Source: a virus (Duplodnaviria > Caudoviricetes). From it: 64,000 bases of DNA. The position numbers were made by a program, and so were the translations under genes. The notes beneath the pieces are model-generated. The model did not search any database. It had not been told where the DNA came from and saw nothing but the letters and a program-made list of their open reading frames with translations. Below, piece after piece: positions 4,486 through 55,731 of the stretch (position 1 is the stretch's first letter; every line of letters begins with the position of its first letter). Location: IMG/VR virus record IMGVR_UViG_3300031992_000042, positions 1-64,000 of that record. The stretch is one strand, 5' to 3'.

Positions 4486-4878
4486 ATGTTTTTATTTATA
4501 TTTTTATGTATGCTGTTCTGTCATATTGTAGACGACTATTATCTTCAAGGCGTACTTGCGAAGATGAAACAAATATCCTGGTGGCAAGAACAAACAAAAG
4601 ATCCTATATATCAAAACGACTGGTTGCCAGCACTAATTGCTCATGGTGTTTCTTGGTCGTTTATGGTAACGCTACCGTGTAATATTTATTTACTTATAAA
4701 CAAGCCAGACAGTATATATCTGTTCTCTATTATGTTTGTATTTAATGCATATCTTCATTGTAAAATAGATAACGATAAATGCAATAAGCACGAAATAAAC
4801 TTAATTACTGATCAATGTATGCATTTATTTCAAATAGGTATCACGTTCTTTAACTTTTTAGTAATAGTATTAACATGA
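4486..4878 (+). CDS. DUF3307-like membrane protein
   Basis: HIVDDYYLQ...H...H..ID..K...DQCMH pattern. Confidence 0.7.
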   Translation: MFLFIFLCMLFCHIVDDYYLQGVLAKMKQISWWQEQTKDPIYQNDWLPALIAHGVSWSFMVTLPCNIYLLINKPDSIYLFSIMFVFNAYLHCKIDNDKCNKHEINLITDQCMHLFQIGITFFNFLVIVLT

Positions 4879-6453: not shown

Positions 6454-6477
6454 ATACAAAACTCCTTTTAGAGCGAC

Positions 6478-6507
6478 ATTATAATCCGGTGGGGTAGTAG
6501 ATGTCAA
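6478..6507 (-). promoter_or_regulatory. integrase promoter
   Basis: TTGACA-N18-TATAAT on - strand, 25 nt upstream of the int start. Confidence 0.8.
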
Positions 6508-32274: not shown

Positions 32275-33402
32275 TTAAGAATAAGTAGGCTTATAAATAA
32301 AAGAGAGTCTTTTAAGACTCGTTCCTTGTGTTGGTGTTATTGTTATTTCGTTCATAGAAACAATACTAGTCTTACATATTCCAGACATTTGTGTATTTTT
32401 AGTTAACTCTAAAGTGTGTTTATCAATACATTTATTTATTTTATACCAGTCTCCAAAAGAATCGATTCCAATATATATGTATTTACCTATATACCACTCT
32501 TTTTCTCCTTCTTCCTGATATAAAATATTCGTTGCAACAACAAGTGAGTTGTTGTAAGAAACGTATAAGTCGCGTAAAATAGGGAAGGCTGGTTCTAACT
32601 CTATAAATCCATGATCATGATAAAGAAATGCAAGTGACTTGTTCCCATCTGAGTCTAAAACAGTCTTTCCGTTGATTCCATCTGTGTAAATATAATCATT
32701 ATTATTTGTGTTGAATGCAACATACTTGCAAGATTGTTGCGTTGCATTGTTGTATATTGTAACGCCATTACCCGCTGTGCCAGAAATAATAATATCCACT
32801 TTCGCTTTTTCTGTGCCCGGGTTATATAAAATAATAGACTTTTGAGATGAAATATTATTAAAAGTCATGTCAGGCACCATGTATGCTTTATCTAAAATAG
32901 CAGTATTTTTCATCATATCAAAATGATGTGGATCAAAAATTTCACTGTAAAAAAGGTGCTTATGTGCAGCATCTTCGTTAGCATCATCTGTAACGTTATA
33001 ACCACGAGCATATGGATAATAAGCTTTCATCGTAATTGTAACAACACCATTCAAATAGTTATATATCTGGCTTATATCTGGATTTGCCGTTACAGTTGCA
33101 TAATAATAACACCATGGTCTGCGCTTAAAAATTAACATTCCTTTTCTACCAACCCTAAATAAATCTAAAGTTTTTGCTAATACGCCTTGGGCTATATGTT
33201 TTTCTTCGTAGTAGCATCTTAATGTAAAAACTTTGGGTTGTTTTGATGCGCCGTATGAGTAACCACCATCATGTCCTTCGAAAGTTTCTTCATGCATGTT
33301 GGATTCAGCCGGAGCATAAACATAGGTATCTTTGTTTTCTGGAGCATATTCTAATCCAATATCAAAAATATCTACTCCACAGAAAGAAAATCCGCCTTTC
33401 AT
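32275..33402 (-). CDS. distal tail protein (Dit)
   Basis: directly after TMP; GFSF.G...G.LIF...P..YYYA...ITMKAYYPYA. Confidence 0.75.
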   Translation of the reverse strand: MKGGFSFCGVDIFDIGLEYAPENKDTYVYAPAESNMHEETFEGHDGGYSYGASKQPKVFTLRCYYEEKHIAQGVLAKTLDLFRVGRKGMLIFKRRPWCYYYATVTANPDISQIYNYLNGVVTITMKAYYPYARGYNVTDDANEDAAHKHLFYSEIFDPHHFDMMKNTAILDKAYMVPDMTFNNISSQKSIILYNPGTEKAKVDIIISGTAGNGVTIYNNATQQSCKYVAFNTNNNDYIYTDGINGKTVLDSDGNKSLAFLYHDHGFIELEPAFPILRDLYVSYNNSLVVATNILYQEEGEKEWYIGKYIYIGIDSFGDWYKINKCIDKHTLELTKNTQMSGICKTSIVSMNEITITPTQGTSLKRLSFIYKPTYS

Positions 33403-33540: not shown

Positions 33541-36500
33541 TTAACCGAAAGCATAACCTGATAAATTTAATCCGTTGCGCTGTAATTCCTTTGTAAAAGC
33601 TTGTCCAACACGTTTTGCTAAGTTATCTACGTCTGCATCAGAGTTAATTTCGGCTTGGTTAATCGTAATGTTGATATCTCCTACATTTGTGTTGTTGTTA
33701 TACATAGACGGATCTATGTAAGACATGTATGGAGAATTCTTAACATAAGTAAATGTATCAAGCATAGAACGAAGAAGTTTAGTATCTGTTGAATCTAAGA
33801 AAGACTCGGGACGTTGCATAGTTCCATCAACCCAAGCAAGTCCTGTATAATCAATTAATCCACCATTGGCGTGAGGACCTTTTGTTTGACCTGTTATTTC
33901 ATAAAATTCTTGAAGTACTTTATTAGATTCTTCTATTGCTTTATTTGCTCTCTCGATTGTTGCGTTATAAGCTTGATCTATTTTATCGAACTCTGAAAGC
34001 TGATTTGTTTTTCTACTTTCTTCGTTTACTTTATTGTTTATCCCGATAATTTTATCTGCTTCTTCTTGGCTTGTAACAACTATCGGAACAGCAACAGCAC
34101 CATGAACATCTTCTTTCGCAAGTTGTTCGTTAATAGCTTCTAATGCTTCTTTTTCTGTTGCATATTCTTTTGTTTTTTGTCCTGCTCCAACGCCTGTATA
34201 TTTCTTTGCGCCAGGTCCTCCATTATCTCCATTCCCACTGTCTGCAGCAGAAGCGGATGATGTTTCTGTAACAGTAGGAGCAACATAATATAATCCTGAT
34301 AAATCTGCAAGACTTAATCCTTCTCCAGTAGAAAAATCAATTGTAGAAACATTAGAACTATCTAAGCCATAAACATCTGGAGCCTTTCCGTCTATTGTTT
34401 TAATATCGACTTTGAAAATGTTATCTTCAAGTTCGTCAATTTTAGAAACAACATCTGTTAACGTATGAGTGTGTTCATCAAATTCCGCACCCGTTTTAAC
34501 AGAGTTAATATAATTATCGTAGTATTCTCCCCATTGCTGTTCAAGAATCCTCATGGAATTTTTGTCGCCGTTTTCTTCATATAACCGATATGTCCTGTCA
34601 ATAGAACGCATATAATCCATATATGTATCTTTATCGCTAAGAACAGTTGTGATTAATTGGTAGTTAGAATCAATAATATCGTTAGCTTTTTTCCATGTAT
34701 CTTCCCAGCCTTGAATCATTTGCTTTTGAGCGTCTGGTAGACTCTTCATAAAGGCTTCATTTTCTTTGCTCATAAACTCAAGAATCTTATTGTAGGATTC
34801 TTCGAACGATCCAGAAAGAATTTCGTTCATTTCTGTTGCAAAGTTATTTGCATCACCAAGAATCTCGTTTAAAAGTTCTTCGTTGTATTGAACAAATTTG
34901 TCCATGCCTTCCATTTGATCGTCGATACGTTCAGACTCAGCAGCTACTTCATCTTCGGCAACAGTCCAAGCATTTTCTTTTTCAAGCTCCTCAATTTTAC
35001 GACGAAGTTCTTTTGCGTCTTTAGTACGAGTAGGATCAGCTTCAATTAAAGCTAATTGCTGTCTGTACTCTGCAAGTTCCTCGTCTTTGTCTGCTTGCTC
35101 GGAAGCCTTTTTACGATAATTAAACCGTTCATTAATCAAACTCTTGTATTCTGCAAGGTTTTCTTTTTCTTTTTCTATGTCTTTCTTTTTAAGATTCCAT
35201 TCATCTTGTAAGCGTTTCTTAAGAAGATTGACAATAGTATCTTGCATAGAAACATTAGCAGAAAGAATTTCGCGCTGACGTTTCTTTTCTGCTTCAATTT
35301 CTTTATCGACAGCATCTTCTAACGTCTTACGAACTTGCATAATCTTCTTTTTATTTTCTTCAAGAAGCTTGTTATTTTTATCAATTTGCGTATTCTCTTG
35401 TTCTATTGCTTCTTCATGTTTCTTAATCTGCTCAACAATACGCTTTTCTTGTTCTTGATCATCCTTAAATAATTCTTTTTGCTTTTCAAGTTCGATAATC
35501 TCGTCTTGAAGAACTTTAACTCTGTTTCCACGAAGATTGTTCTCTTCTTCGATCATCGTGTTTACGTTAGTTAATTCACCATTGTTCTGGTAAACACTAG
35601 TTTGATACCCAAGAAGCTTAATATTATGATCATATTCAGAAGCGCCCCAGTCTTGATCCTCAAACAATTTATCTAAAGCAACTTTATTAATTTCACGCTG
35701 TTTCTGAGATTGTTCTAATAAGAATTTCTGATACTCAGATTCAGCTTCGTTAATAGCATCTAAAAGTTGCCGTTGTGTTTCTGGATCAAGTGTTTTGCTA
35801 GCCATACCTTCTTGATAAGTTTTATTTAAAGCGTCAAGTTTTTCTTTAGCTTCGTTTGTTAAACTACCAAGGTTATCCATATATCGACTCATAGCTTCCA
35901 TATAAGCTTCATTATCTTTAAGACTAAGATATTCTTGCGCCTGTTGAGATAATAATTCGTTCACATGTGAAAGTTCACGAGTCTGATCTGAATAATCTTC
36001 GTTTATTTTATCTATGTTACTTTGAGTCAAAGCTTTGTTAAGTTCAATTTGAGACAATTCTGCCTGAGCAACAGCTTCAGAATACTGATATACAGCTGCT
36101 TGGGCTTCATACCATGAAGTAGAACCTTCTTCAAGAGTTTCCATCTGTTTACGAGCAGAGGCTTCAGCTTTCATATTCTCTGCAATAATTGCAGCAGTAC
36201 TCTTTTGCTGTTCACGAATCATGTTTTCGTATTCATTTCTATAACCGCTTGATTGATAGAAATTACCATAAGCAGAAGCAATATTTTGATTATGGTTTGC
36301 TGTTTGAGTATCTTGCTGAAGAATTTTGGCAATTTGAGAAAGTTTTTGCTGATTTAGTTCAAGTTGTTCTTGTACTAATTGATTATCAAGTTCAGCGTTT
36401 TCTTCTTCAAGAGCATATATTTTATCTCTAACTTCTCTCCACTGATCAGAGTCAGCTTCCCATTGCTTAAGCTCATTCTTCCATTCTTCGATTTGAGCAT

Positions 36501-39500
36501 CGTTTTCTGTGCGCTGAGTTTGTATTTCAGACATTTTCTGTTCTGTTAATTGCACATAATCACTAAACCGATCTTGAGCCAATGCTCTTTCAGCATAAGA
36601 ACTGAGCATGTTTTGTTTATGGGTTCCTGATTTATCAGTTTCTTCTTGGGTTTCTTGTACGAACTCAATTCTCTTTGCTTTAGCTTCAGCAATTTCATTA
36701 TTATAATTAGCCAAAGATTCTTTTGCTGCGTTAATCTTTTCTGTAAGTTGCATGTACTTATCAGAAGTTTTATCTAATCCATTTTGCTGCTCTTCCATTT
36801 TTGCGATGTTTTCTGTTTGCGCAGCTCTCATCTTTTCAATAACAGCTACTTCGTTATCTATAGATGAAACAAATGCATCTCTATTATTTAATCTATTAGC
36901 GGTCGCTTGTTCAATTTGCGTCATCTTACGCTCATGTTCAAGCTCTTTCATCTTAAATTCTATTTCTTTAAGAAGTTTCGTTAACGGATCTACTCCACCA
37001 CCACTAGATTTTTTAGTATAACTAGTTTTACCTGTCATCGCTACAGCAACTTCATTAGCTAAAGCTAGTTGTTGAAGCTTTGATTTATCCATATTTATTA
37101 AATTTGCAAAAGCTTCACCGTATGTTTTATATCCTCCGCTTGCAATAACAGATTGCGCTTTAACAGTATCTCCACCTGCAGCAGCAACAGCAACAGAAGC
37201 AACTAATGGATTTTCTTTGCAATATGTATTCCATTGTTCTACTACTTTTGCTTGATCAGATTTTAAATTCGATGTATCAATAGTTAAATCAGTATTAAAC
37301 TTAACTTTAGATCTATCACTTTCCGGCATTATTTCATACAATTTATCTAAAGTATCTGTTAAAATTTTCTTTGCGTTTTTAAGCTCTTTTTTATCTACTA
37401 ATTTTTCTATATTGCCAGAACCTGTATCATATCCTGCAAGACCAAACAAGATAGGGAAGTTAACTTTGATATAATCATCTTTTACAACTTTGTTCAGAAT
37501 AGACTCAATATTACTCCACTTATCTTTAAATTCTTGTTCTAATCCTTCTGTAGCACTAGACAGATCAATAGTTCCGTCTTCTTTGAATATTATTTTTGAA
37601 TAATCAATTTTTGCACCAGACGATTCTACAAGAGCAACAAGTTCATTCTGAATATTTTGTACATTCTTTTTTTCTTGCGCTGCCGCAAGGGCTGACACTT
37701 GTTCTTTTGTAAGATTGTCAAGATCAGCTTTCTTTAAACCTGTCGCAGATAAGAAATATGATCTATCGTCGCCTTTTATTTGTTTGCCTGCTTTATCCTT
37801 AACTTTGTTTAACGCAACAAGTTCATTATATTGTTGGCTAAGCGTAGCATCTAACTCAACCATTGCAAGTTCAGTTTCGATACCGCCTTTGCCAAGGTCA
37901 ACAAGTATTTCTTTAAAATCTTTTGATACTTCTGTATATTTCAACATTTCATCTAAGCGTTCGCTATCAAAAGTTTTAAAGAACTCATCAAGTGCTTTTT
38001 GAGCAGATGTTAAATCATTATTTGAAAATGCTTGTAATGCATCTTGAAGCTCAGAGTAATTATTAGCAAGAATAGACCATAAAGTATAAGTTCCACTTTC
38101 TGTATCTTTCGTTGCAGCAAGCATCGAAGCTCCAATTTGATCTATTTTTGATTTATCAAACTTACCAAGATCATTTACGTTTTCACCAAATAAACGACTT
38201 AATAATGAACGATTAAGATCGTATTTGTATTTACCACCAGATATCTGAGCATTATCATATAGTTCAAGTAAATCAGGAGCGGCTTCATTCAAACCAACTC
38301 TGGTGGCATTCCAATATTCAGCCATTATAGCAGGATCAAGACTATGCCTTTTTGCAATTTCATTTAATGCGTCAGCGTAGCTGCGTTGTTTGCTGTGCCT
38401 TCCCGTAGAATCGTAATATATATCATACTCTGAATTTACAATTTTATTAATTTCATCCTGATATTGTTGTATCCAACTTGCAGCTCTAGCAGTTCGTGTC
38501 TGTTTTTCGTAATCTTCTAATCCTTGTTCGTAATAGTCTCCGGCTTGAGTTGTACGTTGTCCATTAATTTCTGCACTAACAACATGACCTTCTGCATCAA
38601 CTATTAGATTGGTCAAAGAACCAATTAATGAGTCTATTGAGTCATATAATTCAGGCTGTTCTGCTAATACTTTTGCTCTTAACTGATCTGCCCAATTAGC
38701 ATCGCTAAGATTAATACTGAACGATTTGGCAAACTCTTCAATCATTTTGCCTGTTTTATCGTTTAACATTTTTTGAAGATCCTGCTTGCCTTTGTCGGAC
38801 TTAATAAGATCTTTTATATCTTTATCCTCAAGACCTAAAATAGACGCTAAAGCATTACGATCCTCAGCTGTAGATACTCCAGCATTAAGAGCAGCTTGAG
38901 CATTTGCTAAACTCTTTTGTTGTTGAATGTACGGGTTTATCATACCCATACGTTCAGTTAAAGAACCTTCTGTCCAAGCGATATAATTCTGAAGTAATTT
39001 AGAAGCGTTTTTATCTTCTGAAAATTTAAAATTATATTTGGTAGTTTCTTCTTCTAAATTCCTATTAAAATTCTCAATAATGTTGAGCTGCTCTTGATTA
39101 GCTGCTTCACCAGCTAATCTAGCTGTAATATATTTTTCGATATCTGAATATCCATATGCTTTTAAAATTTCTGGAGATTTTTGCAATGTTCTCAAGTCTT
39201 TGTCAGACATTGTTTGCAGCTCGGATAAATGTGCTAATTGCTGTGTTTTAGTTAAACCTTCTTGTCCGCTTATTAGATTTGAAATTATTTCTTGCATATA
39301 AGCTGATTCAAATCTATTAAGGTTATCTTTTCCACCTCTAAAATACTTGTTAGCAATATTAGCACCTGCAATCTCAGAAACTAATGCTATTTCATCTTCG
39401 CCCATTACTTGTTCTAAACGATCTATCCAGCCAGATTCTTTTATAAATTGATCTCTAGTTGTTGCAAATGGATGTGCTGCGTTCCATTGCTGAATAGCCT

Positions 39501-42500
39501 CTGGCGTGTCTTTTGCGTAACCAAGATCTTTTTCACGCTGTTCTTTTATTTTATTTTGATAATTTTGATAATCTATGTCTATAGCTTTTTGTTGTAAGTC
39601 ATAAGATAAGTAATATCCATCTTCTAATTTATCTATTGCTTTACTTAACTTATCGCCTTTCTCTACATTAGACAAATTTCTTTGGTTGTACTCGCCAGAA
39701 GTTGATAATAATGCGTCGATATATTGTTGATACAATTCATCGCCGTTTAAAATTTTTCCAGAAGTTTCGTCACGTTGTATTCTTAGTGCTAATTTAGCAA
39801 AATCTTCACTTTGGTTAAGAATTTCCCAGTTACCAATATCTTCTTTAACTACATAATCATATAAACTTTGTAAATCGTTTAGACCGTTATCTAGAATCAT
39901 TTCATACATACGGGTAGCAATAAGAGGAAGTTGGTTCTTACTTTCCCACGTATTATATGTTGACTGTGCTTGTGCTCTAAAATGATCTTTGTATGCAGAA
40001 AAATCAGGTTTAATACTTTGTTCTGGTGCTTCCAAATCTTCAATAAAGTTTACAAGATCATCTGTTGTATTATTCATAAAATCAAAGAAATTACCTGTAA
40101 ACTTAATACCAGCAGAATATAATTTATTATTCAGCTTATTGATTGCTTTCTTTTGATCTTCTTCGGATATACCTTCTGAACTACGATATTCAGCTTCTAT
40201 ATCATTGTATGCTTTTTCAAACTTGGTAATCCTATCGTTGTATGTGTCGATTTGTTTTTCAGCTTGTTCTGACGTTAAATATTGACCAGTTTTATTATCG
40301 TAATAATATCCGTTTTGAATATAATCTAAATTTGCACTTTCAAATTTCTTTGCTTTTTCGTTTTTGTTATATCCTATTTCTTTTAAACGGTTTCTTGCGC
40401 TTTCAGCAATAGAATCAATAGTATAATTATCTTGTGACAAACTAAGTGCATCAGAAATATAACTAAAGAAATCCCCACCATTTTCAAGATATCTATTTGT
40501 TAGATCTTCAGCTAAAGCTTCGATTTCATTTTCATCTAAAGGCAAAGCCATATCGGATAGATATTGTATATAATTTTCCTTAGCAACTGTCTGCCGCTTT
40601 ACAGTTGGTGTATACGTATGCGACCAATAATCTTGCATTAACGTATATAATGCATCTGTTGCACTACCAGAAGCAAAATCAGTATGCCAACCTCCATTAT
40701 TCCAACTGTTAATAAACGCATTTTTCAGATTTTCATCACTTACGTTATAATCTCTTTTAATTTTTTCGAAGGCGTCAGAACTACTAATTTCATTATATAA
40801 ATTAAGTAATTGTCCTTGGACATACGTTGGTGCACCTTTGCCTTCCCTCAGCAAAGCGTTCATCGTTTCAGTATTATATTCGCCTGCAAACAATGTTTGC
40901 AACGCCTGACTACCTAGATTTGCTTCGTTTTCTTCATCTTCTCTAACGGCTTTATTTATCTCATCTTCGATTAATTTATTAGTTTTATTTCTATTACGAA
41001 TCATCTCACGAACTCTTGAAAGGTCATTCTTATCGCTCGCTTGCTGAATAATGTTTTCTGCATTCTGCCTTCTTTGTTCGTTTGTCTGTTTATTTACGGT
41101 ATCGAGATCTCCAGATTCAACAGTAATCGATAGGTTACGAAGAAGCCTATCGTATTCTTTTTCTTCTTCTTCTGATCTGTTGTCTCCCTTATTAAATAAA
41201 GTTCTAGCTTTTTCGACTTCTTCGTTTCTTGAATTATATCTATTGTTAATATTATCAATTATCTCTTGATATTGCTCTTCTGAAGACTTTTGGTTTCCAA
41301 TAGCAGATACAATGGCAGCAATGCCTAATCCGGCGGCTGCGACTCCAGCGCCAACTAAAGATCCAGACTTTAACCCTCCCATTATCATCAAAGAAGGTAA
41401 AATGCCCGCTAAGGTAACGCCAAGTCCACCTAAAGAATTATTTGCTTTATCTATTCCTTCTATAAAATTAGTGAGGAATCCTAATCCGCCCGTCAACGCA
41501 CCGCTATCTGTCATATCATGGACCAGTCCGTCCCATGTGTTTCTTAAATCTGTTAACGATGCATTTAAGGATTTTGTATAGATCTCATACTTTCTGTCTG
41601 TTATTCCTTCAGATTCTCCTGCTAATTGTAAATATTCACCAACTTTACCTTCTGACATACCAGACATAATAGCGGCAAAGTTAGAATACTGTCTTGTGCC
41701 AGCTATTGCGTTAGCAAATTGCTGTTGTTTAGCATCAGATAAGCTCTCCCATTTTTGAGATAACGCGAACAATGTATCAAACGAACTACGTTTATTTCCG
41801 TATTCGTCGTACATTCTTATGCCTTCTTCTTCAAGAAGCTTTGCAACAGCAGAACCACTTACAGCATTACCATTTTCGTCGTAGATAAGTTCGTTTGTTC
41901 CGATCTTATTCATACGTCCAAAAATAGTATTTAATGTACGACCTGCTACATTACCACCTATTTGAGTAGTAGATGTGATAGCAGTTAACATAGCTGAAAG
42001 CTGTGCAAAAGTAGTTCCGTCTGCGGCAGCAGCTGCACCAGCCTTTTCAATGCCTTTTTCGATTTCTGCGGCATTTGTAGCGGCATTATCGCCCAATGCA
42101 GTAACTATATCTGCGGCTTGTTCTGCCTGAGAAACAAGACCTGTATTCATTGCGACAGTAATAAGCTTTGTTGCGGCATCTACTTTTGTACCGGAAACTT
42201 TAGAGAATTTAGAAATAACACCAAGACGTTCATCTACTTCTTGATCACTTAATCCTTGACGATAAAGTGTAGCAGCGGACTGAGTAATCTCAGCTACTGA
42301 TACTTTCATTTCTTTAGCTTTATCGATTAATGTATCTCCAAGGGTAGAAATTTGTTCATCTGTTTTTAGAGTGATCATCTGAATAGTGTTCATCGACGCA
42401 TCAAACTGTTTTACAAAGTTTGTTGTCTCTGAAATTGCAGACTGGAACAAACGTCTGGTAAACATGTTGGACATATATCCAAACGTTGATTTAAACTCTG

Positions 42501-45500
42501 TTTTAAGAATTTTGGCACCCTGACCAAGAGCAATCATTGCTGGATTAGCTCTTCTTTCAAGCTGGTCTAACCCTTCATTTATCCTATCGTATTCATTTTT
42601 GGAATATTGACCTTCATTATACTGGTTACCAACTTGCTTTCTAAGAGTATTTATCTCTTGTTTTCTTGCGGCTGAAATAACAGATAAAGAATTTTTACTC
42701 TTTAAGCCTTGTTTTATCTGTAATGACTCTAAAGCCAGTCTGCCAGCCGTCTCGTTTTGTGTTGTGTATTCAGCTGCTAAACTTGCTCTAGCATCTTGAG
42801 CATTTGCAATACGTTGGTTAGCGACTTTAATAGCATCTTCGTATTGCTTTTGGTATGCAGAATCAACCAAACCTTTATCAAGACGGTTTTGCATCCACGT
42901 AATACCATTTTGCTGCTTGGATATTCTTTCATCATATTTATTTAGTGTCTCTTTTTGTTTGCTTAAACCAAAACCGTTTAATTCTTTTGTAATATCATCT
43001 TCAAGCTGTTTAGCATCAAGCATTATTCCGTTTGTAAAACTTTTATGCATGTTTTCAGTAACTTTATCTCTTGCTTGTGCTATCTGAGACATCCAAGCCG
43101 AACGTTGATCTTCTAAATCTTTTGTTCCTGTAAAAGCTGCATCAGATGCAAGTTCTTCTTCAAGAGCGTTTAAGGGTTGTAAATTTTCAAAAGTACGATA
43201 TTGTAAATAATTATATTGACGTTCTGCCAATGTCTTTTCATCATTTAATTTATTCTCTTTTCCTCTTTGCTCTCTCCAAAGTTCGTCCCCATAGGTTCTT
43301 GTGTCTGATAATATCTGGTTAAACCTATTTCCTACTTCTAAAGCATGTTCATATTTACTTAAATCTGCAAGAACTTTTTCTCTTTGTTCTGTTTGCTCTG
43401 CTTTTTTAGGCGTTTGCGGTCCCCATATCGCGTCAGCACTTTCAGACTGGTTTGTAGACGTCCCGCCTTGAATAGGCATACTTGCAGAACCCGAAGCTTT
43501 TGGATTTTCAACATAAACCAAATTGCCAGTATTTTTATCTTCATAAACAATATTGCCTTTTTCATCTCTGATGATATTATTGTTAGCAACAATTGCAGTT
43601 TCTGGTTTTGCAGGTTCTTTCGGTTGTTCTGGTTCTTTAAATGCCTCAGCCTGTTTGCGAAGCTCAACAACTTTTGATACAAGTGTTTGTCCTACAGCAT
43701 CTGTTGCATTTACAAAATTAGTTCTAAAGTCATCGCCATATGTACGAACAAGATCGCTTTCAAGCATACCGAATTGATCTATGGCGTTTCTTGCAGTTCT
43801 AATACCATATCTGGCTTCTTGTGCTTTAGCCCACTGCTCTTTAGTGTCATAGGCTTTATCGCCTAACATGAATTTACCAGTAGTTGGATCTCTATAATCA
43901 TCTGCAGCTAACGTCAATTCAGCAGCAGCAGCATTTATTAAGCCTTGAATATATTGACCTTCATCATTTGTAATATAAGCTCTCTCGCCTGTGCCAAATT
44001 GATGATGAAGCATACGCATCGTCTGCATCAGTTTGATGCGTTCAGGACCAGCATCACCATATCCGAGCTGTTTATCCATTGCTTCATATATAGCATCCAT
44101 TTGAGTGGGATCAACATTGCCTGTGCGATAAAGCTGGTTTGCTTGAGCAATAGCCATCATATGGTTTGACATATATCTAGAAGGCAAGTTAATTTCATCG
44201 ATGCCCATATCTCTAAGGGCTCTTAAATTGATATATTCTCCATTGGATGCTTTATATATATCTGGATGACTCGCATCTATATACGTACCTTCACGAGTTT
44301 TTACAGCGTTTTTACGATCTGGGGATACGATCATGTCTTCGTCAAACTTAAACAGATCTGTACGCTTTTCTGAGAATTTAGTATATTCTTTACCTAAACC
44401 TAAAGCAGCCCAAACAGGATCATCTTTTTCTAAAGTATAAGTTTGTGCTTTTTTAGGAGTAGAACCAATATCATATATACCTGCCATTCTCTGAGCCGCA
44501 TATACAAGCGCTTGGTTTTCTGGTCTTGAATAGTCGACCTGCATTATTCTGATACCAGAAGAACCTGTACCCATTGGCATAGTCGCATACAAATTGCGTT
44601 CTGCTTGAAGTCTATTTTGAACAGACCAGCTCTTTAATTGTTCTGGCGTATATACAATATCTTCACCTTTAACATCCGAGTCTTTGTATGCACCCATTCG
44701 TTTTAAAGAAGCTTGTACCGCATCGGCAAGTTCTTTATCGTAAATTGCTTTTACTTGGTCTGCATCGTAGTCCATGCCTTGAAGAATTCGTCTATCTTTT
44801 TCAGAAACATACATTCCTGTAGAAGTTGATATGCCAAATCCTTTATAAATAGGTTCTGCGTCAGCTGCCAAATTCTGCGCATAGTACATATTGCCGTATC
44901 CAGTAGGAGAGCGAACAACCGCTACATTGGCTTGATCTTTTCTGTTAAAGTCAAGCACTTTACCTTGCGGTAAAATGATCATATCTCGAATATCTTGGTC
45001 GGATAATCGAGCGTTTGCTTCTTTGTCTAAATATGAGCGAGCTTTCGCAATAGACGCATCTGGAACAGTCCCATCTTTAGCCAACAATATCGTCGCTAAA
45101 GGGCTTGCTGCAGCGCGAAGGTTTGCAATTTTGTCATCGTTGTCAAAGTTGATATATTTACCAGCAATTAAGTCGTTGTAAAGAGAAGCTCGCATATTAT
45201 CAATTCGTGAACGAGCTTCTGTTGACGCTAATAACTGTGAATTGCCACCGAATAAAGGATTAACCTTTCGACTTAGATAGTCTTCTTTATTGCCGAATAC
45301 ATATTTCAACTGACCTTCTTCGGTATCAAGTTCTTGCATTCGCCTCATTGCCATTTCAATTTGATGTTGTCTTAATTCAGGAGAAAACATCATAAAAGAC
45401 GACATCTGAGTACCTAAGTTATCTGAAGCAACTTGATCTAAGTCATAGTCAGCATGATAACTCATAGGATGACGCTGTAATAATGCGGTGAACCTTCTAC

Positions 45501-47589
45501 TTGCGATATCGCCAGATACATAATTACCATTTTCGTCTTTAAGAACACCTTGGTTCTTAATAACATCCATCGGTATATATCCTTGATAATCTGCGATATT
45601 AAATAATTCGCCGTTCGGACCAGGAGCCATTAAACGACCTTGTTCGTCAAGTAAACCAGTTTTCTTGCCAAACGCTCTTAAGTCGTTCCCTTCAAAAACA
45701 AACGCAGAACCTTTAAGACCGACTCCGCCTCTGAATTGACCAGAATGTGGCATAACTGAACTTGCAAAGAAAGCACCGCCGTCTCCGGGGGACACTCCGC
45801 CAAGTTGATCTTTTAACCGACTTGTATCAACTACAGCAAAACGTTTACCGTCTATATTTATCCCAAGGTCTGATGTATTCGTCCATGCTTTGTTAAGCAT
45901 TTCAAGATGCTTACCATACTTCTGTGCAGTAATACCATCTTTACCGCCAACGCCGTTTTGAATTAAACGATCTATTTCTGCGTCGTCGAAACCGCGCCAA
46001 TATGTACCACGAATACCACGAACAGCTTCATCAGGATGGTTTCTAATCCATTCCGCTTCTTGCTCGTTAACTCTATTAAAAGCATTTTGCTCAATCATAC
46101 GAACAATAGTGTCCTGACCTGTGCCATGAATACTCTGTGCGATAAACTTGGCATTGCCTAATTGAGCGCCATTTGGATTAAAAAGGTTTTCTAAAAACTT
46201 TTGATGTTCTGGATTTTTCGCATCATATCCAGCTAATGATACAATACGAATTGTATCGCTCACGTCTTGGTTGTTTTTCCATTTACCGCCACCCAAAAGT
46301 CTTGTATTATGACTTTCAGAGATCATAACACTCCTAGGATCGCCTAATGCAACTTTATCGCCTGTAAATGGAGAATATTTAGATACTACAAGCTGATCTT
46401 GAATACGTTTGCCTTCTCCTTGAAGTTTACTCCACGTGTTAGGATTGGCAGAATTTGTCCATGCACGAGTATCTTCCATACCTTCAATGTCTTGCATGGC
46501 AAGCATTGCTCTGCCTGACGTAGAGGATGTTAAACGTTGCATTAACGTTCTTTTATCTGATCCTGTTGCTTTATATGCATCAATAGCATTGCCCTTATAA
46601 CCAGAAACTCTAACTAAAAGATCATCATATAAAGCTTTTCTAAATCCTTCCCATTCAGATCTTGAAATTTCGTCTTTAGTTTCAAGTACGCCACGTTCAT
46701 CTCTTCTGCTAATACCAGAGGCTATTGCAGCTTTTACTGCAACAGAATTGTTTTTTAGAATATTATCAAGCTGTTTTCTATAAGCAGTGTCGAGCACCAT
46801 CGACTGATATGACTTATCAAACGTCTGAAAGTCCCGGCCCTGAGATCTGAAAGTTGCCTTGAAAGACTCGGGAAATAAGTCTTCTGGTTTACCTGTATAT
46901 AACCCAGCACTTACATTTTGTCTAACATGACCGTATCTTGCCTTCTGGTAAATTTTATTCATGTTAGCTGGAGTAATAGACGGAATAAGATACTCAATCA
47001 TCCTATCAAGGTTGAATTCAGCATCTGTATTAGATAAGCCATGTTTGTTTAATAAACCTCTTATTGCAGGGTCCATTTTTGTTGGGTTAGTTCCGCCTGT
47101 TAATTCTTTTGCAATTTGTCCTACGTCTTTTGAGAGAATTGAACTGCCTGCTTTACTTAAGCTACTTATTCTACTCCGAACGATAGAAGTTAATTGTGGA
47201 GCAATAGTATCAAACTGATGTTGCACAGCAGATGGAAGATCTCCAAACCATTGTTTTGCTATTTGCGCACTATAAGATGTTGTACCAAGCTGAACATCTC
47301 TTAAAGCATTAAGCTCTAAAATATTATTATTTGCACCACGCTCAAGCGCAACACGCTCAGCATCGGAAGAATATGTTTTATTTTGAAGCTTCTCTAATTT
47401 GTCATTTAATGCGTCAACAACAGTAACTGAACGTTCAAATGAATTATCAAGAATTTTACTAACATTTGGCATTTCCGAAATACTTGTTTTTAATCCATCA
47501 ATGCCTTGTTTAATGGTACTAATTTGTTGTTTCGCATCTCCAAAGTCCATGTTAGCAGATATATTAAGTTTAATTTCATTCCACGGCAT
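33541..47589 (-). CDS. giant tape measure protein (4682 aa) with N-terminal two-barrel RNA-polymerase-like domain
   Basis: TP901-type TMP core (about 41500-42430), long coiled coils, C-terminal HANGG..PE motif, position between TAC and Dit; RNAP motifs D603G, Q618FRGGVGLKG, R893SP, D940YDAD. Confidence 0.85.
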   Translation of the reverse strand: MPWNEIKLNISANMDFGDAKQQISTIKQGIDGLKTSISEMPNVSKILDNSFERSVTVVDALNDKLEKLQNKTYSSDAERVALERGANNNILELNALRDVQLGTTSYSAQIAKQWFGDLPSAVQHQFDTIAPQLTSIVRSRISSLSKAGSSILSKDVGQIAKELTGGTNPTKMDPAIRGLLNKHGLSNTDAEFNLDRMIEYLIPSITPANMNKIYQKARYGHVRQNVSAGLYTGKPEDLFPESFKATFRSQGRDFQTFDKSYQSMVLDTAYRKQLDNILKNNSVAVKAAIASGISRRDERGVLETKDEISRSEWEGFRKALYDDLLVRVSGYKGNAIDAYKATGSDKRTLMQRLTSSTSGRAMLAMQDIEGMEDTRAWTNSANPNTWSKLQGEGKRIQDQLVVSKYSPFTGDKVALGDPRSVMISESHNTRLLGGGKWKNNQDVSDTIRIVSLAGYDAKNPEHQKFLENLFNPNGAQLGNAKFIAQSIHGTGQDTIVRMIEQNAFNRVNEQEAEWIRNHPDEAVRGIRGTYWRGFDDAEIDRLIQNGVGGKDGITAQKYGKHLEMLNKAWTNTSDLGINIDGKRFAVVDTSRLKDQLGGVSPGDGGAFFASSVMPHSGQFRGGVGLKGSAFVFEGNDLRAFGKKTGLLDEQGRLMAPGPNGELFNIADYQGYIPMDVIKNQGVLKDENGNYVSGDIASRRFTALLQRHPMSYHADYDLDQVASDNLGTQMSSFMMFSPELRQHQIEMAMRRMQELDTEEGQLKYVFGNKEDYLSRKVNPLFGGNSQLLASTEARSRIDNMRASLYNDLIAGKYINFDNDDKIANLRAAASPLATILLAKDGTVPDASIAKARSYLDKEANARLSDQDIRDMIILPQGKVLDFNRKDQANVAVVRSPTGYGNMYYAQNLAADAEPIYKGFGISTSTGMYVSEKDRRILQGMDYDADQVKAIYDKELADAVQASLKRMGAYKDSDVKGEDIVYTPEQLKSWSVQNRLQAERNLYATMPMGTGSSGIRIMQVDYSRPENQALVYAAQRMAGIYDIGSTPKKAQTYTLEKDDPVWAALGLGKEYTKFSEKRTDLFKFDEDMIVSPDRKNAVKTREGTYIDASHPDIYKASNGEYINLRALRDMGIDEINLPSRYMSNHMMAIAQANQLYRTGNVDPTQMDAIYEAMDKQLGYGDAGPERIKLMQTMRMLHHQFGTGERAYITNDEGQYIQGLINAAAAELTLAADDYRDPTTGKFMLGDKAYDTKEQWAKAQEARYGIRTARNAIDQFGMLESDLVRTYGDDFRTNFVNATDAVGQTLVSKVVELRKQAEAFKEPEQPKEPAKPETAIVANNNIIRDEKGNIVYEDKNTGNLVYVENPKASGSASMPIQGGTSTNQSESADAIWGPQTPKKAEQTEQREKVLADLSKYEHALEVGNRFNQILSDTRTYGDELWREQRGKENKLNDEKTLAERQYNYLQYRTFENLQPLNALEEELASDAAFTGTKDLEDQRSAWMSQIAQARDKVTENMHKSFTNGIMLDAKQLEDDITKELNGFGLSKQKETLNKYDERISKQQNGITWMQNRLDKGLVDSAYQKQYEDAIKVANQRIANAQDARASLAAEYTTQNETAGRLALESLQIKQGLKSKNSLSVISAARKQEINTLRKQVGNQYNEGQYSKNEYDRINEGLDQLERRANPAMIALGQGAKILKTEFKSTFGYMSNMFTRRLFQSAISETTNFVKQFDASMNTIQMITLKTDEQISTLGDTLIDKAKEMKVSVAEITQSAATLYRQGLSDQEVDERLGVISKFSKVSGTKVDAATKLITVAMNTGLVSQAEQAADIVTALGDNAATNAAEIEKGIEKAGAAAAADGTTFAQLSAMLTAITSTTQIGGNVAGRTLNTIFGRMNKIGTNELIYDENGNAVSGSAVAKLLEEEGIRMYDEYGNKRSSFDTLFALSQKWESLSDAKQQQFANAIAGTRQYSNFAAIMSGMSEGKVGEYLQLAGESEGITDRKYEIYTKSLNASLTDLRNTWDGLVHDMTDSGALTGGLGFLTNFIEGIDKANNSLGGLGVTLAGILPSLMIMGGLKSGSLVGAGVAAAGLGIAAIVSAIGNQKSSEEQYQEIIDNINNRYNSRNEEVEKARTLFNKGDNRSEEEEKEYDRLLRNLSITVESGDLDTVNKQTNEQRRQNAENIIQQASDKNDLSRVREMIRNRNKTNKLIEDEINKAVREDEENEANLGSQALQTLFAGEYNTETMNALLREGKGAPTYVQGQLLNLYNEISSSDAFEKIKRDYNVSDENLKNAFINSWNNGGWHTDFASGSATDALYTLMQDYWSHTYTPTVKRQTVAKENYIQYLSDMALPLDENEIEALAEDLTNRYLENGGDFFSYISDALSLSQDNYTIDSIAESARNRLKEIGYNKNEKAKKFESANLDYIQNGYYYDNKTGQYLTSEQAEKQIDTYNDRITKFEKAYNDIEAEYRSSEGISEEDQKKAINKLNNKLYSAGIKFTGNFFDFMNNTTDDLVNFIEDLEAPEQSIKPDFSAYKDHFRAQAQSTYNTWESKNQLPLIATRMYEMILDNGLNDLQSLYDYVVKEDIGNWEILNQSEDFAKLALRIQRDETSGKILNGDELYQQYIDALLSTSGEYNQRNLSNVEKGDKLSKAIDKLEDGYYLSYDLQQKAIDIDYQNYQNKIKEQREKDLGYAKDTPEAIQQWNAAHPFATTRDQFIKESGWIDRLEQVMGEDEIALVSEIAGANIANKYFRGGKDNLNRFESAYMQEIISNLISGQEGLTKTQQLAHLSELQTMSDKDLRTLQKSPEILKAYGYSDIEKYITARLAGEAANQEQLNIIENFNRNLEEETTKYNFKFSEDKNASKLLQNYIAWTEGSLTERMGMINPYIQQQKSLANAQAALNAGVSTAEDRNALASILGLEDKDIKDLIKSDKGKQDLQKMLNDKTGKMIEEFAKSFSINLSDANWADQLRAKVLAEQPELYDSIDSLIGSLTNLIVDAEGHVVSAEINGQRTTQAGDYYEQGLEDYEKQTRTARAASWIQQYQDEINKIVNSEYDIYYDSTGRHSKQRSYADALNEIAKRHSLDPAIMAEYWNATRVGLNEAAPDLLELYDNAQISGGKYKYDLNRSLLSRLFGENVNDLGKFDKSKIDQIGASMLAATKDTESGTYTLWSILANNYSELQDALQAFSNNDLTSAQKALDEFFKTFDSERLDEMLKYTEVSKDFKEILVDLGKGGIETELAMVELDATLSQQYNELVALNKVKDKAGKQIKGDDRSYFLSATGLKKADLDNLTKEQVSALAAAQEKKNVQNIQNELVALVESSGAKIDYSKIIFKEDGTIDLSSATEGLEQEFKDKWSNIESILNKVVKDDYIKVNFPILFGLAGYDTGSGNIEKLVDKKELKNAKKILTDTLDKLYEIMPESDRSKVKFNTDLTIDTSNLKSDQAKVVEQWNTYCKENPLVASVAVAAAGGDTVKAQSVIASGGYKTYGEAFANLINMDKSKLQQLALANEVAVAMTGKTSYTKKSSGGGVDPLTKLLKEIEFKMKELEHERKMTQIEQATANRLNNRDAFVSSIDNEVAVIEKMRAAQTENIAKMEEQQNGLDKTSDKYMQLTEKINAAKESLANYNNEIAEAKAKRIEFVQETQEETDKSGTHKQNMLSSYAERALAQDRFSDYVQLTEQKMSEIQTQRTENDAQIEEWKNELKQWEADSDQWREVRDKIYALEEENAELDNQLVQEQLELNQQKLSQIAKILQQDTQTANHNQNIASAYGNFYQSSGYRNEYENMIREQQKSTAAIIAENMKAEASARKQMETLEEGSTSWYEAQAAVYQYSEAVAQAELSQIELNKALTQSNIDKINEDYSDQTRELSHVNELLSQQAQEYLSLKDNEAYMEAMSRYMDNLGSLTNEAKEKLDALNKTYQEGMASKTLDPETQRQLLDAINEAESEYQKFLLEQSQKQREINKVALDKLFEDQDWGASEYDHNIKLLGYQTSVYQNNGELTNVNTMIEEENNLRGNRVKVLQDEIIELEKQKELFKDDQEQEKRIVEQIKKHEEAIEQENTQIDKNNKLLEENKKKIMQVRKTLEDAVDKEIEAEKKRQREILSANVSMQDTIVNLLKKRLQDEWNLKKKDIEKEKENLAEYKSLINERFNYRKKASEQADKDEELAEYRQQLALIEADPTRTKDAKELRRKIEELEKENAWTVAEDEVAAESERIDDQMEGMDKFVQYNEELLNEILGDANNFATEMNEILSGSFEESYNKILEFMSKENEAFMKSLPDAQKQMIQGWEDTWKKANDIIDSNYQLITTVLSDKDTYMDYMRSIDRTYRLYEENGDKNSMRILEQQWGEYYDNYINSVKTGAEFDEHTHTLTDVVSKIDELEDNIFKVDIKTIDGKAPDVYGLDSSNVSTIDFSTGEGLSLADLSGLYYVAPTVTETSSASAADSGNGDNGGPGAKKYTGVGAGQKTKEYATEKEALEAINEQLAKEDVHGAVAVPIVVTSQEEADKIIGINNKVNEESRKTNQLSEFDKIDQAYNATIERANKAIEESNKVLQEFYEITGQTKGPHANGGLIDYTGLAWVDGTMQRPESFLDSTDTKLLRSMLDTFTYVKNSPYMSYIDPSMYNNNTNVGDINITINQAEINSDADVDNLAKRVGQAFTKELQRNGLNLSGYAFG

Positions 47590-47650
47590 AAATATTTCTC
47601 CTTTTCAGTTTAGTTATATATAAACAGATAAACTCTGAAATTTCCGAATT

Positions 47651-47679
47651 TTGACTTTCACTCCTTTTGTGTGTAAACT
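47651..47679 (+). promoter_or_regulatory. sigma70-type promoter for a counter-oriented small gene
   Basis: TTGACT-N17-TAAACT. Confidence 0.6.
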
Positions 47680-47702
47680 ATATACGAAAGGAGATAATAT
47701 AT

Positions 47703-47867
47703 ATGAAAAAAGAAAACAAAGATAAACAGTTCGAAGAAGACTTCGAACCTGAATGGTTAAAAAAAGCAGCCCAAACAATGCTGCAAGGACAAAAAGAATC
47801 CTACGGAGATGAGGATCAAAATGAGTTAATGTGTTTAATTAACTCAAATGATGAAGATCAATTATGA
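47703..47867 (+). CDS. 54-aa acidic protein (moron-like)
   Basis: AAGGAG RBS, own promoter, terminator at 47874. Confidence 0.65.
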   Translation: MKKENKDKQFEEDFEPEWLKKAAQTMLQGQKESYGDEDQNELMCLINSNDEDQL

Positions 47868-47873
47868 AAAATA

Positions 47874-47899
47874 GGGGAGTGCCATAAAAGGCACTCCCC
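47874..47899. terminator. terminator between converging genes
   Basis: ggggagtgcc-ataaaa-ggcactcccc. Confidence 0.7.
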
Positions 47900-47900
47900 G

Positions 47901-48278
47901 TTAAGTTTCTTTAAATTTATTCCATTCTGCATCTTCATTTTCTTTTGTAATATGATTTTGTTTCATAAAATCCGTCACAGCTTTAATATAATCTGTTTCT
48001 TCTTCTAATATAGCTGGTTCAATCTTAGTTGTAATAATATCATAAATCCATTCAACAACTTTTCCTTTTTTAGATTCAATTACATTTCGTTTTTCAGATT
48101 CAAGCATTAAAATATTTTCAATTTCAGTCCAGCCAAAAGTATAGTCAGTAACCTGAGCTGGATCTAATTTTAACGTATACATAATATGTCGCCAATCAGG
48201 TTCAAGATACCAAAATCCATTATCCGCCTGAATGATTGTTTCTTCCTTTACTTTGTTAATAAACTCTGTATATAACAT
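47901..48278 (-). CDS. hypothetical protein
   Basis: GAGGAG RBS before MLYTEF. Confidence 0.6.
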   Translation of the reverse strand: MLYTEFINKVKEETIIQADNGFWYLEPDWRHIMYTLKLDPAQVTDYTFGWTEIENILMLESEKRNVIESKKGKVVEWIYDIITTKIEPAILEEETDYIKAVTDFMKQNHITKENEDAEWNKFKET

Positions 48279-50477: not shown

Positions 50478-51058
50478 TTAAGCATTCTTGCCAACAAAGG
50501 CGATAGAATAGGTAGCTTCGTCAGGGCGCTTGGCATCCATAGCAGCCAGCGTGAAGCCGAAGGTATTCGCAGTCTTGTAGGACGCATCGAAACCCGGAGC
50601 CTGCGTAACACGAGCATTGTAAACACGAACCAGAACATAACCGATAATAGAGCTATCTGTGCAGTTTTCGCCAGAACCGTAAACCGGATATTTCATGATC
50701 GCTTCACCACGAGCGGAGCTGCGGTTGTCAATGTTTGCTTCTTGAGCTTCTACAGAATAGAAATAAGAAACAGCAACATCGTTTTCAACGTCGCCTGCAA
50801 AGAAGATAATCTTAGCGACTTCGCCAGATGTATCAACCTTGAACTTTCCTTTAACAGGTGTTTGCGCTGTTTCTTCAAGCCCAGCAATAGAAACAGAACC
50901 TGTAATTGGAATCTTTGCTAAATCAACTTCGTTCGTGCCGTCAACGGTCAGAATTTCAGTAATTGGCATCTGATAATGTTCGTTCGTTTCAAAGTTGGTA
51001 GCATTCGCCATAACAAACAGGTCAGCTTCAAACTTACCTGAAGTAATGGACATCTCAA
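50478..51058 (-). CDS. major tail (tube) protein, exon 2
   Basis: in frame with exon 1 after intron removal; highly expressed codon style. Confidence 0.8.
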
Positions 51059-51443
51059 CATTTTGTTCAACTGAGGGCGCTAACCTCAGCCCGCTTATTA
51101 AGCTGCTGCACATTGCTGTGCAGTTCAGACTATCTCTTCACCCTATTAAATAGGGGCTCTTCTTTTCGACCCGCTTGGGCCTACACCTTTCGGTTAGTCG
51201 TTACACATTCAAACAGAAATCCAATGGAGATTATTGGTTTTATTAAGTTTTCCTCTGATACATTTTATAATCGCACTTGCATCTGCCCCGGTTTGACGTT
51301 GAGCTTCTGCTGCAGATTCATATTCAACACCAGTTTCAATAAATAATCATATAACCACCTATTTCTGTTCTTAGCACGGGATTGTCCCAATGGGAGTTTC
51401 CCCGTTTAGAAGAGTAATTTATAGTCCGCCCAAGAGATTGTTT
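51059..51443 (-). ncRNA. group I intron, 385 nt
   Basis: exon U before the splice site, terminal G, P1 with U.G, P/Q/R/S-like core elements, splicing restores frame. Confidence 0.88.
51209..51350 (-). pseudogene. deleted homing endonuclease remnant inside the intron
   Basis: AGGTGG RBS plus MIIY start fused out of frame to a NUMOD1/IENR1-like segment IETGVEYESAAEAQRQTG...IIKCIRGK...HW. Confidence 0.7.
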
Positions 51444-51636
51444 AGGTGGACTGACCGGGTAAATAAGCCACAGGATACAGAGACCAACCAGCGTTAATTT
51501 CTGTATAGTTAACCTGAGGCGTTACGGTCGCATTAGTGAGTTCATCGAAATAGAACACGCGACCATCGCAGCGTTTAAACCACAGCCGCGGCACGTCGGC
51601 AACGTATCCGTTAAACTCTTTAACATAAGTAGCCAT
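51444..51636 (-). CDS. major tail (tube) protein, exon 1
   Basis: GAGGT RBS, MATYVKEFNG...LPGQST. Confidence 0.8.
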
Positions 51637-51763
51637 AACACATGACCTCGCTTTTGTATATTTATAACAACAACCAATTCTCTCCCACAAGTTTCAGTTG
51701 CGGTTATACGATGAGGTCCTTCATATAACCTTTGATGCCAGTATTAGCCCTGACTCAAGGCTC

Positions 51764-54729: not shown

Positions 54730-55731
54730 TTAGCCGATCTCATACGCACCGATGGTGGGAATGGAACCAACAACAAACGCAGCACCGAAGCGCTGAGTCA
54801 GTTCAGTTTCAAACGTATGATCATCGATAGTCTGTTGAGTCATGCTATAGGTCGGACCTTCGTTCAGAACCTTCAGGTTCTTCTGATCGTTGGACACACC
54901 GGCAGAGATAATGTAAATCCAGTCGGGGTTCAGGATCGGAGTGGTCTTGCCATCTTCATAAGCATTGATCATAGAGATAACAGCAGCGCCATTGTAACGA
55001 CCAAGGTAGCCATTGTTATTCTTCTCATCGATCATGCTGCCACTATACTGAACACTATTGTTGTTAACAGGAGCGCCAGACAGAGCAAACAGACCTTCAA
55101 CAGCAGCAGCGTCACCAACAAGGCTTACGCCGCCAAGCCGCTTAAAGTACATCAGCTGATCGTCGATAGTGTTCTTAACGATACCAGTACCAGTGCCGTA
55201 GAACGGAGTGCTGTAAGCACCGCTGGACAGAGCATCATGCAGAACCTTTTCAACATACTTCAGCTTCAGCATAGTGAATTCTTTGTTTGCATCACGAATC
55301 AGGTCAGGCATATTGATCCGGTTCATACGAATGTCCCAGATATTGATAGCCGGACGGCTCGCGATTTCGAAAGTATTAATAGAGAACTGACGATCAGTCA
55401 CGTAGCTCCGAGCGGTGGTAGCACCAGTCGCTTGGATAAACGCCTTGATGCCAGCAGTCTTCATGCGATACATGGGACGGTCACCCAGAGCTACGTTACG
55501 CACATCCGCAAAAGTCTCGATGAAATTCAGAGAATTCTGTTGCAGTTCATTGATGGTGAACGCAATAATCTGACCAATTTCATGCTGATGCTGAGGAGAC
55601 ATATCCTGAGCCAGCTCGTTGACGATAGCGGAAGCCTCTTCGACCTTGTCGGATTCGACCCGTTCATTACGGACCTGAGCAGCCATTACTTTAATGAGCT
55701 TGCTGTCCTTATCAACCCTAATTTCAGCCAT
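54730..55731 (-). CDS. major capsid protein
   Basis: 333 aa, strong codon bias, GGAGGTG RBS, position after scaffold/decoration genes, terminator downstream. Confidence 0.8.
   Translation of the reverse strand: MAEIRVDKDSKLIKVMAAQVRNERVESDKVEEASAIVNELAQDMSPQHQHEIGQIIAFTINELQQNSLNFIETFADVRNVALGDRPMYRMKTAGIKAFIQATGATTARSYVTDRQFSINTFEIASRPAINIWDIRMNRINMPDLIRDANKEFTMLKLKYVEKVLHDALSSGAYSTPFYGTGTGIVKNTIDDQLMYFKRLGGVSLVGDAAAVEGLFALSGAPVNNNSVQYSGSMIDEKNNNGYLGRYNGAAVISMINAYEDGKTTPILNPDWIYIISAGVSNDQKNLKVLNEGPTYSMTQQTIDDHTFETELTQRFGAAFVVGSIPTIGAYEIG

Follow-up and report, generated by a model that had tools for sequence, protein, structure and literature searches.

The stretch analysed here, called the window, comprises 64,000 nucleotides (nt) and corresponds to positions 1-64000 of the 105,695-bp IMG/VR phage record IMGVR_UViG_3300031992_000042. 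The structural genes of this long-tailed phage form a module on its minus strand. Within this module, an open reading frame (ORF) at 33541..47589 on the minus strand encodes a tape measure protein of 4,682 amino acids (aa) whose N-terminal module is almost certainly, judging from its predicted structure, a single-chain two-barrel (double-psi beta-barrel, DPBB) RNA polymerase of the QDE-1/RDR/YonO clade. This module shares one reading frame with a body that is a true tape measure protein. The gene is a single 4,682-codon frame with an ATG start that agrees with the N-terminus of its homologues. It has no internal stop over 14 kb and is flanked by tail genes on one side and by the adjoining Dit gene (32275-33402) on the other.

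Domain Layout of the Giant Tape Measure Protein

The protein begins with a helical region conserved in the family (aa 1 to ~390; 46420..47589 on the minus strand, as for all features of this gene), in which aa 1 to ~220 are modelled by AlphaFold2 as long helices in a bundle. The model of aa 1-420 is almost entirely helical, with a predicted local distance difference test (pLDDT) score of 80.7, and a structure search with it returned no specific relative, only unspecific helical-bundle matches with Z < 8. The predicted two-barrel polymerase core occupies aa 395-1165 (44095..46407), as supported by superposition on QDE-1, by Foldseek and by hhalign comparison with the YonO-like family. It leads into a C-terminal helical part of the module (aa 1166-1313; 43651..44094), which is conserved in homologues, is modelled confidently to ~aa 1295 and falls outside the alignments to solved polymerases. 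A low-complexity linker rich in P, E, K, S and G (aa 1314-1397; 43399..43650) comes next; it is poorly conserved, and pLDDT falls where it starts.

Beyond the linker, the protein has the build of a tape measure protein. The core domain PF10145 (PhageMin_Tail) lies at aa 1757-1964 (41698..42321), scoring 87.2 bits against a Pfam cut-off of 33.2, and six tape-measure PHROGs cover aa 1398-2518. A Kyte-Doolittle scan placed two neighbouring hydrophobic, transmembrane-like segments at aa 2052-2099 (41293..41436), the sole segments above 1.6 in the entire protein. They are followed by an E/K/Q-rich, helix-rich ruler of ~2,300 aa and by a conserved C-terminal end (aa ~4560-4682; 33544..33912) with the block GGLxDYTGLAWVDGT..PE.FL...GD.N in homologues. 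The Pfam and PHROG matches, the gene position relative to Dit/Tal, the hydrophobic segments and the long helical body all identify a tape measure protein. In cultured phages, the core has its closest relatives in the tape measure proteins of SPbeta-like Bacillus phages, Psychrobacillus phage Perkons, Enterococcus phages and Lactococcus phage phiL47. Neither Pfam nor PHROGs gave a match to the first 1,390 residues, both libraries seeing the tape-measure part only, and a direct sequence search of the N-terminal 1,313 aa against PDB sequences returned nothing meaningful. A profile built from a fragment-only alignment was poor (548 positions), gave chance matches only and was set aside.

Catalytic Motifs and Predicted Fold

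The polymerase core is organized as a beta-like barrel (D603-G, R620, K626-G) that lies N-terminal to a beta'-like barrel (R893-x-P, D940-x-D942-x-D944). The first holds PGDGGAFF (aa 601-608; D603 at nt 45783) and GQFRGGVGLKGSAF (aa 617-630), which spans Q618-x-R620...K626-G627. These DPBB-B motifs, G-D603-G and Q618-x-R620...K626-G627, occupy aa 601-630 (45700..45789) and are supported by conservation and by their register with the DG...R...KG series of YonO-like proteins. The second barrel holds VAVVRSP (aa 889-895; R893 at nt 44913) and LQGMDYDADQV (aa 936-946; D940-D944 at nt 44772-44758), so that the DPBB-A motifs, namely R893-S-P895, the putative metal-binding loop D940-Y-D942-A-D944 and then K947, fall at aa 889-947 (44749..44925).

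Conservation was counted in a 44-sequence alignment with a mean column identity of 13%, including relatives down to ~25% identity. The three aspartates D940, D942 and D944 are present in 39 of 39 sequences each, P895 in 41 of 41, R893 in 39 of 41 and K947 in 37 of 39. In the other barrel, K626 and G627 are invariant (36/36), as are R620 (38/38) and G604 (37/37); Q618 is kept in 37 of 38 and D603 in 34 of 37, with N in the other three. Position 943 is G in 22 members, A in 15 and S in two; most family members therefore have the canonical DxDGD, and the DYDAD of the present protein is a common variant. Given this near-invariance at very low overall identity, the motif series is more than chance.

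An AlphaFold2 model of aa 380-1320, built with 35 aligned sequences, reached a mean pLDDT of 91.2 and a predicted template modelling score (pTM) of 0.87. All PDB matches found by Foldseek at E <= 0.001 are QDE-1 or RDR2 chains, with QDE-1 at the top (E 5.5e-13, probability 1.00, template modelling score 0.42-0.44 over ~1,000 columns). P74-26 gp62 (1.1e-3), gp66 of crAss-like phage phi14:2 (2.2e-3), P23-45 gp64 (1.4e-2) and P23-45 gp96 (8.2e-2) follow, and bacterial beta' is also listed, between P23-45 gp64 and gp96. Structural alignment with VIA-align superposed residues 16-786 of the model on QDE-1 487-1187 (Z 19.0-19.4, 499-541 residues, root-mean-square deviation 4.0-4.6), ahead of RDR2 (Z 12.5-18.2), gp62/gp64 (Z 15.2-15.5) and gp96 (Z 11.1-11.9). 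The top 18 rows contained single-chain two-barrel polymerases only, followed by the largest subunits of multisubunit enzymes at Z 8-9. In BFVD, the best matches were phage proteins annotated as RNA-dependent RNA polymerase (RdRP), pieces of crAss-like polymerases and P23-45 gp64.

Profile comparison points the same way. The profile of the N-terminal domain aligned by hhalign with that of the YonO-like/PF05183 family over 453 columns (probability 87.6, E 3.5e-6), matching aa 414-966 to 197-681 of the family of a 1,037-aa YonO-like protein that this phage also encodes, with DG, R..KG, RSP and DxDGD all in register. A BLASTP comparison of the domain with that 1,037-aa protein itself (E 0.007) aligned the DPBB-A motifs with its RSP...DWDGD, and PF05183 clusters appeared in 21 of 30 matches of an Atlas feature search. 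An earlier note on this DNA had located the four motifs at exactly these residues and nucleotides. It had described the first ~1300 aa as globular, followed by a linker and an ordinary tape-measure core with no stop in between, and had proposed a two-barrel RNA polymerase, to be checked by invariance of the three aspartates, R893 and K626 in homologues. These points were confirmed, with the refinement that aa 1-400 are helical and that R893 is replaced in two sequences.

The closest solved structures are thus those of Neurospora QDE-1 and plant RDR2 (PDB 2J7N, 7Y7T, 7W82 and 7EU0; Foldseek E 5.5e-13 to 1e-7), at only ~10-13% identity to the present domain. These are free-standing enzymes of eukaryotic RNA silencing that use RNA or single-stranded DNA templates and have no virion context. 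YonO of the Bacillus prophage SPbeta and the YonO-like proteins (PF05183; phrog_8308) share the motif order DG / R..KG / RSP / DxDGD. They are free-standing enzymes, 800-1,000 aa long and synthesised intracellularly, whereas the present domain is fused to a tape measure protein and has only marginal pairwise sequence similarity to them. Gp66 of phi14:2 (PDB 6VR4) is likewise a two-barrel polymerase within a very large delivered virion protein, but it is cargo of a podovirus capsid or muzzle rather than part of a tape measure protein, and its structural match is much weaker than that of QDE-1.

Integrity and Breadth of the Fusion Family

In metagenome-derived DNA such as this, a polymerase gene and a tape-measure gene could in principle have been joined by an error of assembly or gene calling. 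A 29-kb contig from a sheep-gut run, which may be the source sample, spans 41000-48000 with zero differences. In a second study, sheep-gut metatranscriptome libraries contain short stretches identical to this DNA; their presence does not imply transcription, and bins without coverage carry no weight. Independent pieces cover 43289-43526 and 43621-43918, although none of that study's independent contigs extends singly across the entire linker. Pieces of ~90% identity were found in a bovine-gut run. The reading frame runs for 14 kb with neither a stop nor a frame change, and the N-terminal position and the order of linker and core are the same in dozens of assemblies made independently from several sources. 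The identical contig and the conserved architecture rule out an assembly chimera for practical purposes, an outcome that the earlier note had listed as refuting its proposal, and the probability of an artefact is negligible.

The same fusion is present in ~100 different giant tape measure proteins of gut and rumen metagenomes. A word-index search brought up 12 proteins of 4,578-5,561 aa, 42-90% identical in the domain, and an exhaustive phmmer search against 1.84 billion representatives gave 72 matches. The full-length ones are all 3,700-6,520 aa long with the domain at ~aa 120-1300, and the short ones look like fragments. No free-standing full-length version of the polymerase domain was found among these representatives. 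With the tape-measure core (aa 1420-2120) as query, 85 proteins were retrieved. Of 105 giant relatives, 42 match the hidden Markov model (HMM) of the protein's own subgroup and 29 match only that of a second subgroup (B), while most of the others still carry R/K-x-P...DxDGD at ~aa 900-1200, ahead of the core. Profile-profile comparison showed three other sampled subgroups (36 proteins) to be homologous to the domain (probability 100, E 1e-42 to 2e-54, 995-1,130 columns), with E values of 1e-42 to 1e-45 for the two beyond B (21 sampled proteins). The same layout is common to homologues of 3,700-7,200 aa, and the module is missing in only five relatives of ~3,000 aa each, four of which have 26-28% core identity.

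The cores of these proteins are 50-74% identical, yet their polymerase modules fall into at least four subgroups that are linked to one another by profile-profile comparison only. It follows that the polymerase module is diverging far faster than the core; the reason is either rapid evolution of the module or its exchange. A tblastn search of 50,697 deposited phage genomes with the polymerase domain gave no match, and a 2,625-aa relative (P0203) matched only by way of its tape-measure core. IMG/VR yielded one further contig only, and a pattern scan across 185,579 species genomes was negative, so that no host was identified in this way. Choline-binding or cell-wall-binding repeats (PF01473, PF19127) were noted in some giant homologues, such as P0004 (4,766 aa) and P0229 (6,227 aa).

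The Thermus Phage Precedent

The earlier note knew of no characterised fusion of a tape measure protein with an RNA polymerase, a statement that is out of date. The arrangement has already been characterised, because Chaban et al. (2024, Nat Commun 15:317, PMC10770324) describe gp96 of Thermus phage P23-45, a tape measure protein of 5,002 aa in which a two-barrel polymerase forms the N-terminal part. Its minimal active fragment is aa 327-1124, with DFDGD at 779, and crystal structures are available (8H2M, 8H2N) (PMC10770324). Gp96 is present at full size in virions, extends RNA in vitro, and is found on pre-early genes 5 min after infection, after which a separate non-virion polymerase, gp64, takes over (PMC10770324). 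The protein has a membrane domain too, and its polymerase is unusually flat, which was proposed as the reason why it can pass through the tail (PMC10770324). The gp96 polymerase lacks a clamp and has only a short connector between its barrels. The same type occurs in phages P74-26, G20c, TSP4 and P23-45_stolb.

The likeness to gp96 is extensive in design. Both are giant tape measure proteins (5,002 and 4,682 aa) with an N-terminal polymerase in one frame; both have the motif order GDG, Q-x-R..KG (LKG in gp96), R-x-P (R-N-P in gp96) and DxDxD (DFDGD in gp96). They also share an N-terminal lead of ~330-390 aa that is dispensable or helical and a downstream membrane segment, and each phage encodes one or more further two-barrel polymerases of the non-virion kind, here an 807-aa ORF near the packaging genes. 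The folds correspond as well (Z 11.1-11.9 over 356-365 residues). In sequence, by contrast, full-length BLASTP and phmmer found no significant similarity to gp96 in either the polymerase or the tape-measure half. The family profile gave no match to gp96 alone by hhalign, and against a profile of P23-45, stolb3 and TSP4 it aligned only 28 columns around DxDxD (E 0.019, probability 2.5). In structure, gp96 is further from the present model than QDE-1 (Z 19, clamp-bearing) and gp64/gp62 (Z 15) are, and K-G and DxDxD are 314 aa apart here compared with 233 aa in gp96. Among the 50,697 deposited genomes, tblastn detected gp96-type domains in 10 Thermus phage records only. The present family, by contrast, comes from ruminant-gut metagenomes, and its phage, unlike those with gp96, carries an integrase and two YonO-like genes. 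A literature search found no other fusion of this kind outside Thermus phages. The novelty here lies in a family unrelated in sequence, in how widely it occurs in gut and rumen metagenomes, in its build, which is QDE-1-like rather than gp96-like, and in its setting beside an integrase and two YonO-like polymerases.

Companion YonO-Like Polymerases

Both YonO-like genes are on the plus strand, and with the tape-measure domain they bring the two-barrel polymerases of this phage to three. The 807-aa ORF (genome 64991-67414), with DYDGD, scores 39.2 bits against PF05183 (cut-off 23.8) and matches phrog_8308 at 2e-74. It lies outside the window, 3.8 kb past the terminase gene, as the fourth ORF of a rightward operon that begins just past the terminase genes at ~62.9 kb. 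The 1,037-aa ORF (genome 90717-93830), with DWDGD and homologues of ~945 aa, matches phrog_8308 at 1e-180 and lies upstream of replication genes. The two proteins are 24% identical to each other. Six further contigs appear to pair a giant tape measure protein with a YonO-like protein, the sign being that both proteins come from contigs of equal length (127,628; 114,767; 99,178; 132,529; 113,818; 66,695).

Just upstream of the second YonO-like gene, a 442-aa reverse-transcriptase-like protein is encoded (genome 88676-90004, plus strand), with matches to phrog_2825 'polymerase' (3e-44) and to phrog_1423 reverse transcriptase (5e-12).

Proposed Function and Alternative Explanations

Taken as a whole, the evidence makes it likely that one polypeptide serves as tape measure and as two-barrel polymerase, is delivered through the tail and transcribes early genes; delivery with the virion followed by early transcription, the part that leans on the analogy with gp96, is itself reasonably likely. 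By the same analogy, and from what is general in tape-measure biology, the assembled tail would contain the protein with its C-terminus at the tip and its polymerase end nearest the DNA, the flexible linker joining the polymerase module to the tape-measure body. At infection it would be expelled, and the tape-measure part may help to form a conduit through the envelope. The injected polymerase would then transcribe the first-entering genes without host polymerase. A likely target would be the rightward operon beside the packaging genes (~62.9 kb), which holds the 807-aa polymerase gene; the 807-aa and 1,037-aa YonO-like polymerases could subsequently take over in a three-polymerase cascade.

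Several observations weigh against this proposal. PF05183 (RdRP) gave no match to the 4,682-aa protein at E <= 0.1 and its gathering score was not reached; a single fragmentary family member matched the model, at E 0.003, and homology to it shows up at profile-profile level only. No phage-specific, promoter-like repeated motif was found in the genome by exact k-mers and 11-mers with one mismatch in intergenic DNA, the output consisting only of low-complexity A/T words and coding repeats. A QDE-1-like folded module of ~100 kDa or more should not fit a siphophage tail tube; because the model resembles the flat gp96 less (Z 12) than QDE-1 (Z 19), passage would need unfolding or another location of the module. 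Finally, we know of no described role for an injected polymerase in the lysis-lysogeny decision, and this phage carries a tyrosine integrase.

Some of these points lend themselves to other explanations. The polymerase might be active in another role, copying RNA, priming DNA synthesis or making RNA that blunts host defence. The closest solved structures, QDE-1 and RDR2, are RNA-dependent or dual-template enzymes, the two YonO-like polymerases of the genome could cover transcription, and the promoter search was negative. However, the tested members of the clade in bacteria and phages are transcriptases: YonO and crAss gp66 are DNA-dependent. The same holds for P23-45 gp64 and gp96 (PMC10770324), and the one tape-measure fusion characterised so far is a transcriptase of pre-early genes. 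A different role is therefore unlikely. We judge it equally unlikely that the polymerase is never delivered, being cut off during tail assembly or left behind in the emptied virion, in which case it would work, if at all, in the producing cell and the fusion would serve co-expression or assembly. Many tape measure proteins are proteolytically processed, the flexible linker at aa 1314-1397 separates the two modules, and the tail lumen seems too narrow for the polymerase module. Against this, the P23-45 polymerase is found in virions within full-size gp96 and on phage DNA at 5 min, and the fusion has been kept in ~100 diverged proteins, without a free-standing full-length version in the 1.84 billion representatives, which argues that the physical link matters.

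It is very improbable, moreover, that the module is a catalytically dead relic with a structural use as a plug, a length spacer or a partner of the head-tail connector. The alanine in place of the DxDGD glycine in the present protein and the fast evolution of the family, with subgroups missed by each other's HMMs, could be read in this sense. Yet dead enzymes normally lose their catalytic residues, whereas here the three aspartates, R-x-P, Q-x-R and K-G are invariant or nearly so amid variable surroundings, and Ala or Ser stands at the fourth position of the loop in as many as 17 of 39 members, beside Gly in 22. Tail delivery of an active transcriptase is thus the reading that we prefer.

Until now, gp96 has looked like an oddity of a few thermophilic phages. 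With the same design in a sequence-unrelated family, injection of a polymerase on the tail ruler passes from a single case to a probably general, possibly convergent strategy. The family offers comparative material on how an enzyme of > 100 kDa is stored in a tail and passed through it, and it raises the question of how an injected polymerase fits with the lysogenic option. Phages of this kind would be insensitive to defences directed at host polymerase, and their early promoters would escape sigma-70-type predictions. A more tentative suggestion, possible although we would not favour it at present, is that the fusion arose independently of the Thermus phages, in mesophilic animal-gut phages of 100-160 kb, from a fuller, non-flat enzyme of the QDE-1/YonO type. 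In that case, placing a large enzyme at the N-terminus of the tape measure protein would be a general route for its injection, invented repeatedly, and this apparently temperate phage would run a three-polymerase, host-independent cascade in which a bulky polymerase is threaded unfolded through the tail.

Genomic Setting and Additional Observations

The minus-strand structural module that contains the tape measure gene also encodes the terminase (59488-61182), the portal (57885-59468) and a major-head-like protein (54730-55731); a 2,140-aa protein is encoded after Dit, and fibre-like proteins are present as well. To our knowledge, the virion polymerases described so far belong to virulent phages. 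The present phage is apparently temperate, as judged from a tyrosine integrase (5341-6507, minus strand; PF00589, 32.8 bits). An endolysin with NlpC/P60 and SH3 domains is encoded at 10255-11229 on the minus strand; this domain combination, along with choline-binding repeats in one homologue, suggests that the host is probably Gram-positive. Paludibacteraceae, the label of a metagenome-assembled genome carrying one YonO-like homologue, was rejected as the host, such a label not being trusted for a phage contig. The label 'SPbeta-like' was likewise set aside. The capsid, portal and tail proteins of the window have no match to SPbeta-named Pfam families, which were seen only beside a distant family member, and the label is therefore only a loose one.

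Two further features of the structural region were recorded. In the tail-gene region, a group I intron at 51106-51453 on the minus strand (Rfam RF00028, 55.3 bits against a gathering score of 50, E 2.6e-11) probably splits a major tail or tube gene, the halves of which are ORFs 50478-51113 and 51442-51690. Tandem repeats, spotted as recurring 12-14-mers, lie in coding DNA at window positions 17660-18150 and 19100-20660, with periods of ~69 nt and ~123 nt. They sit within ORFs 17373-18902 and 18902-21907, the latter of which has peptidase-like and minor-tail-like PHROG matches.

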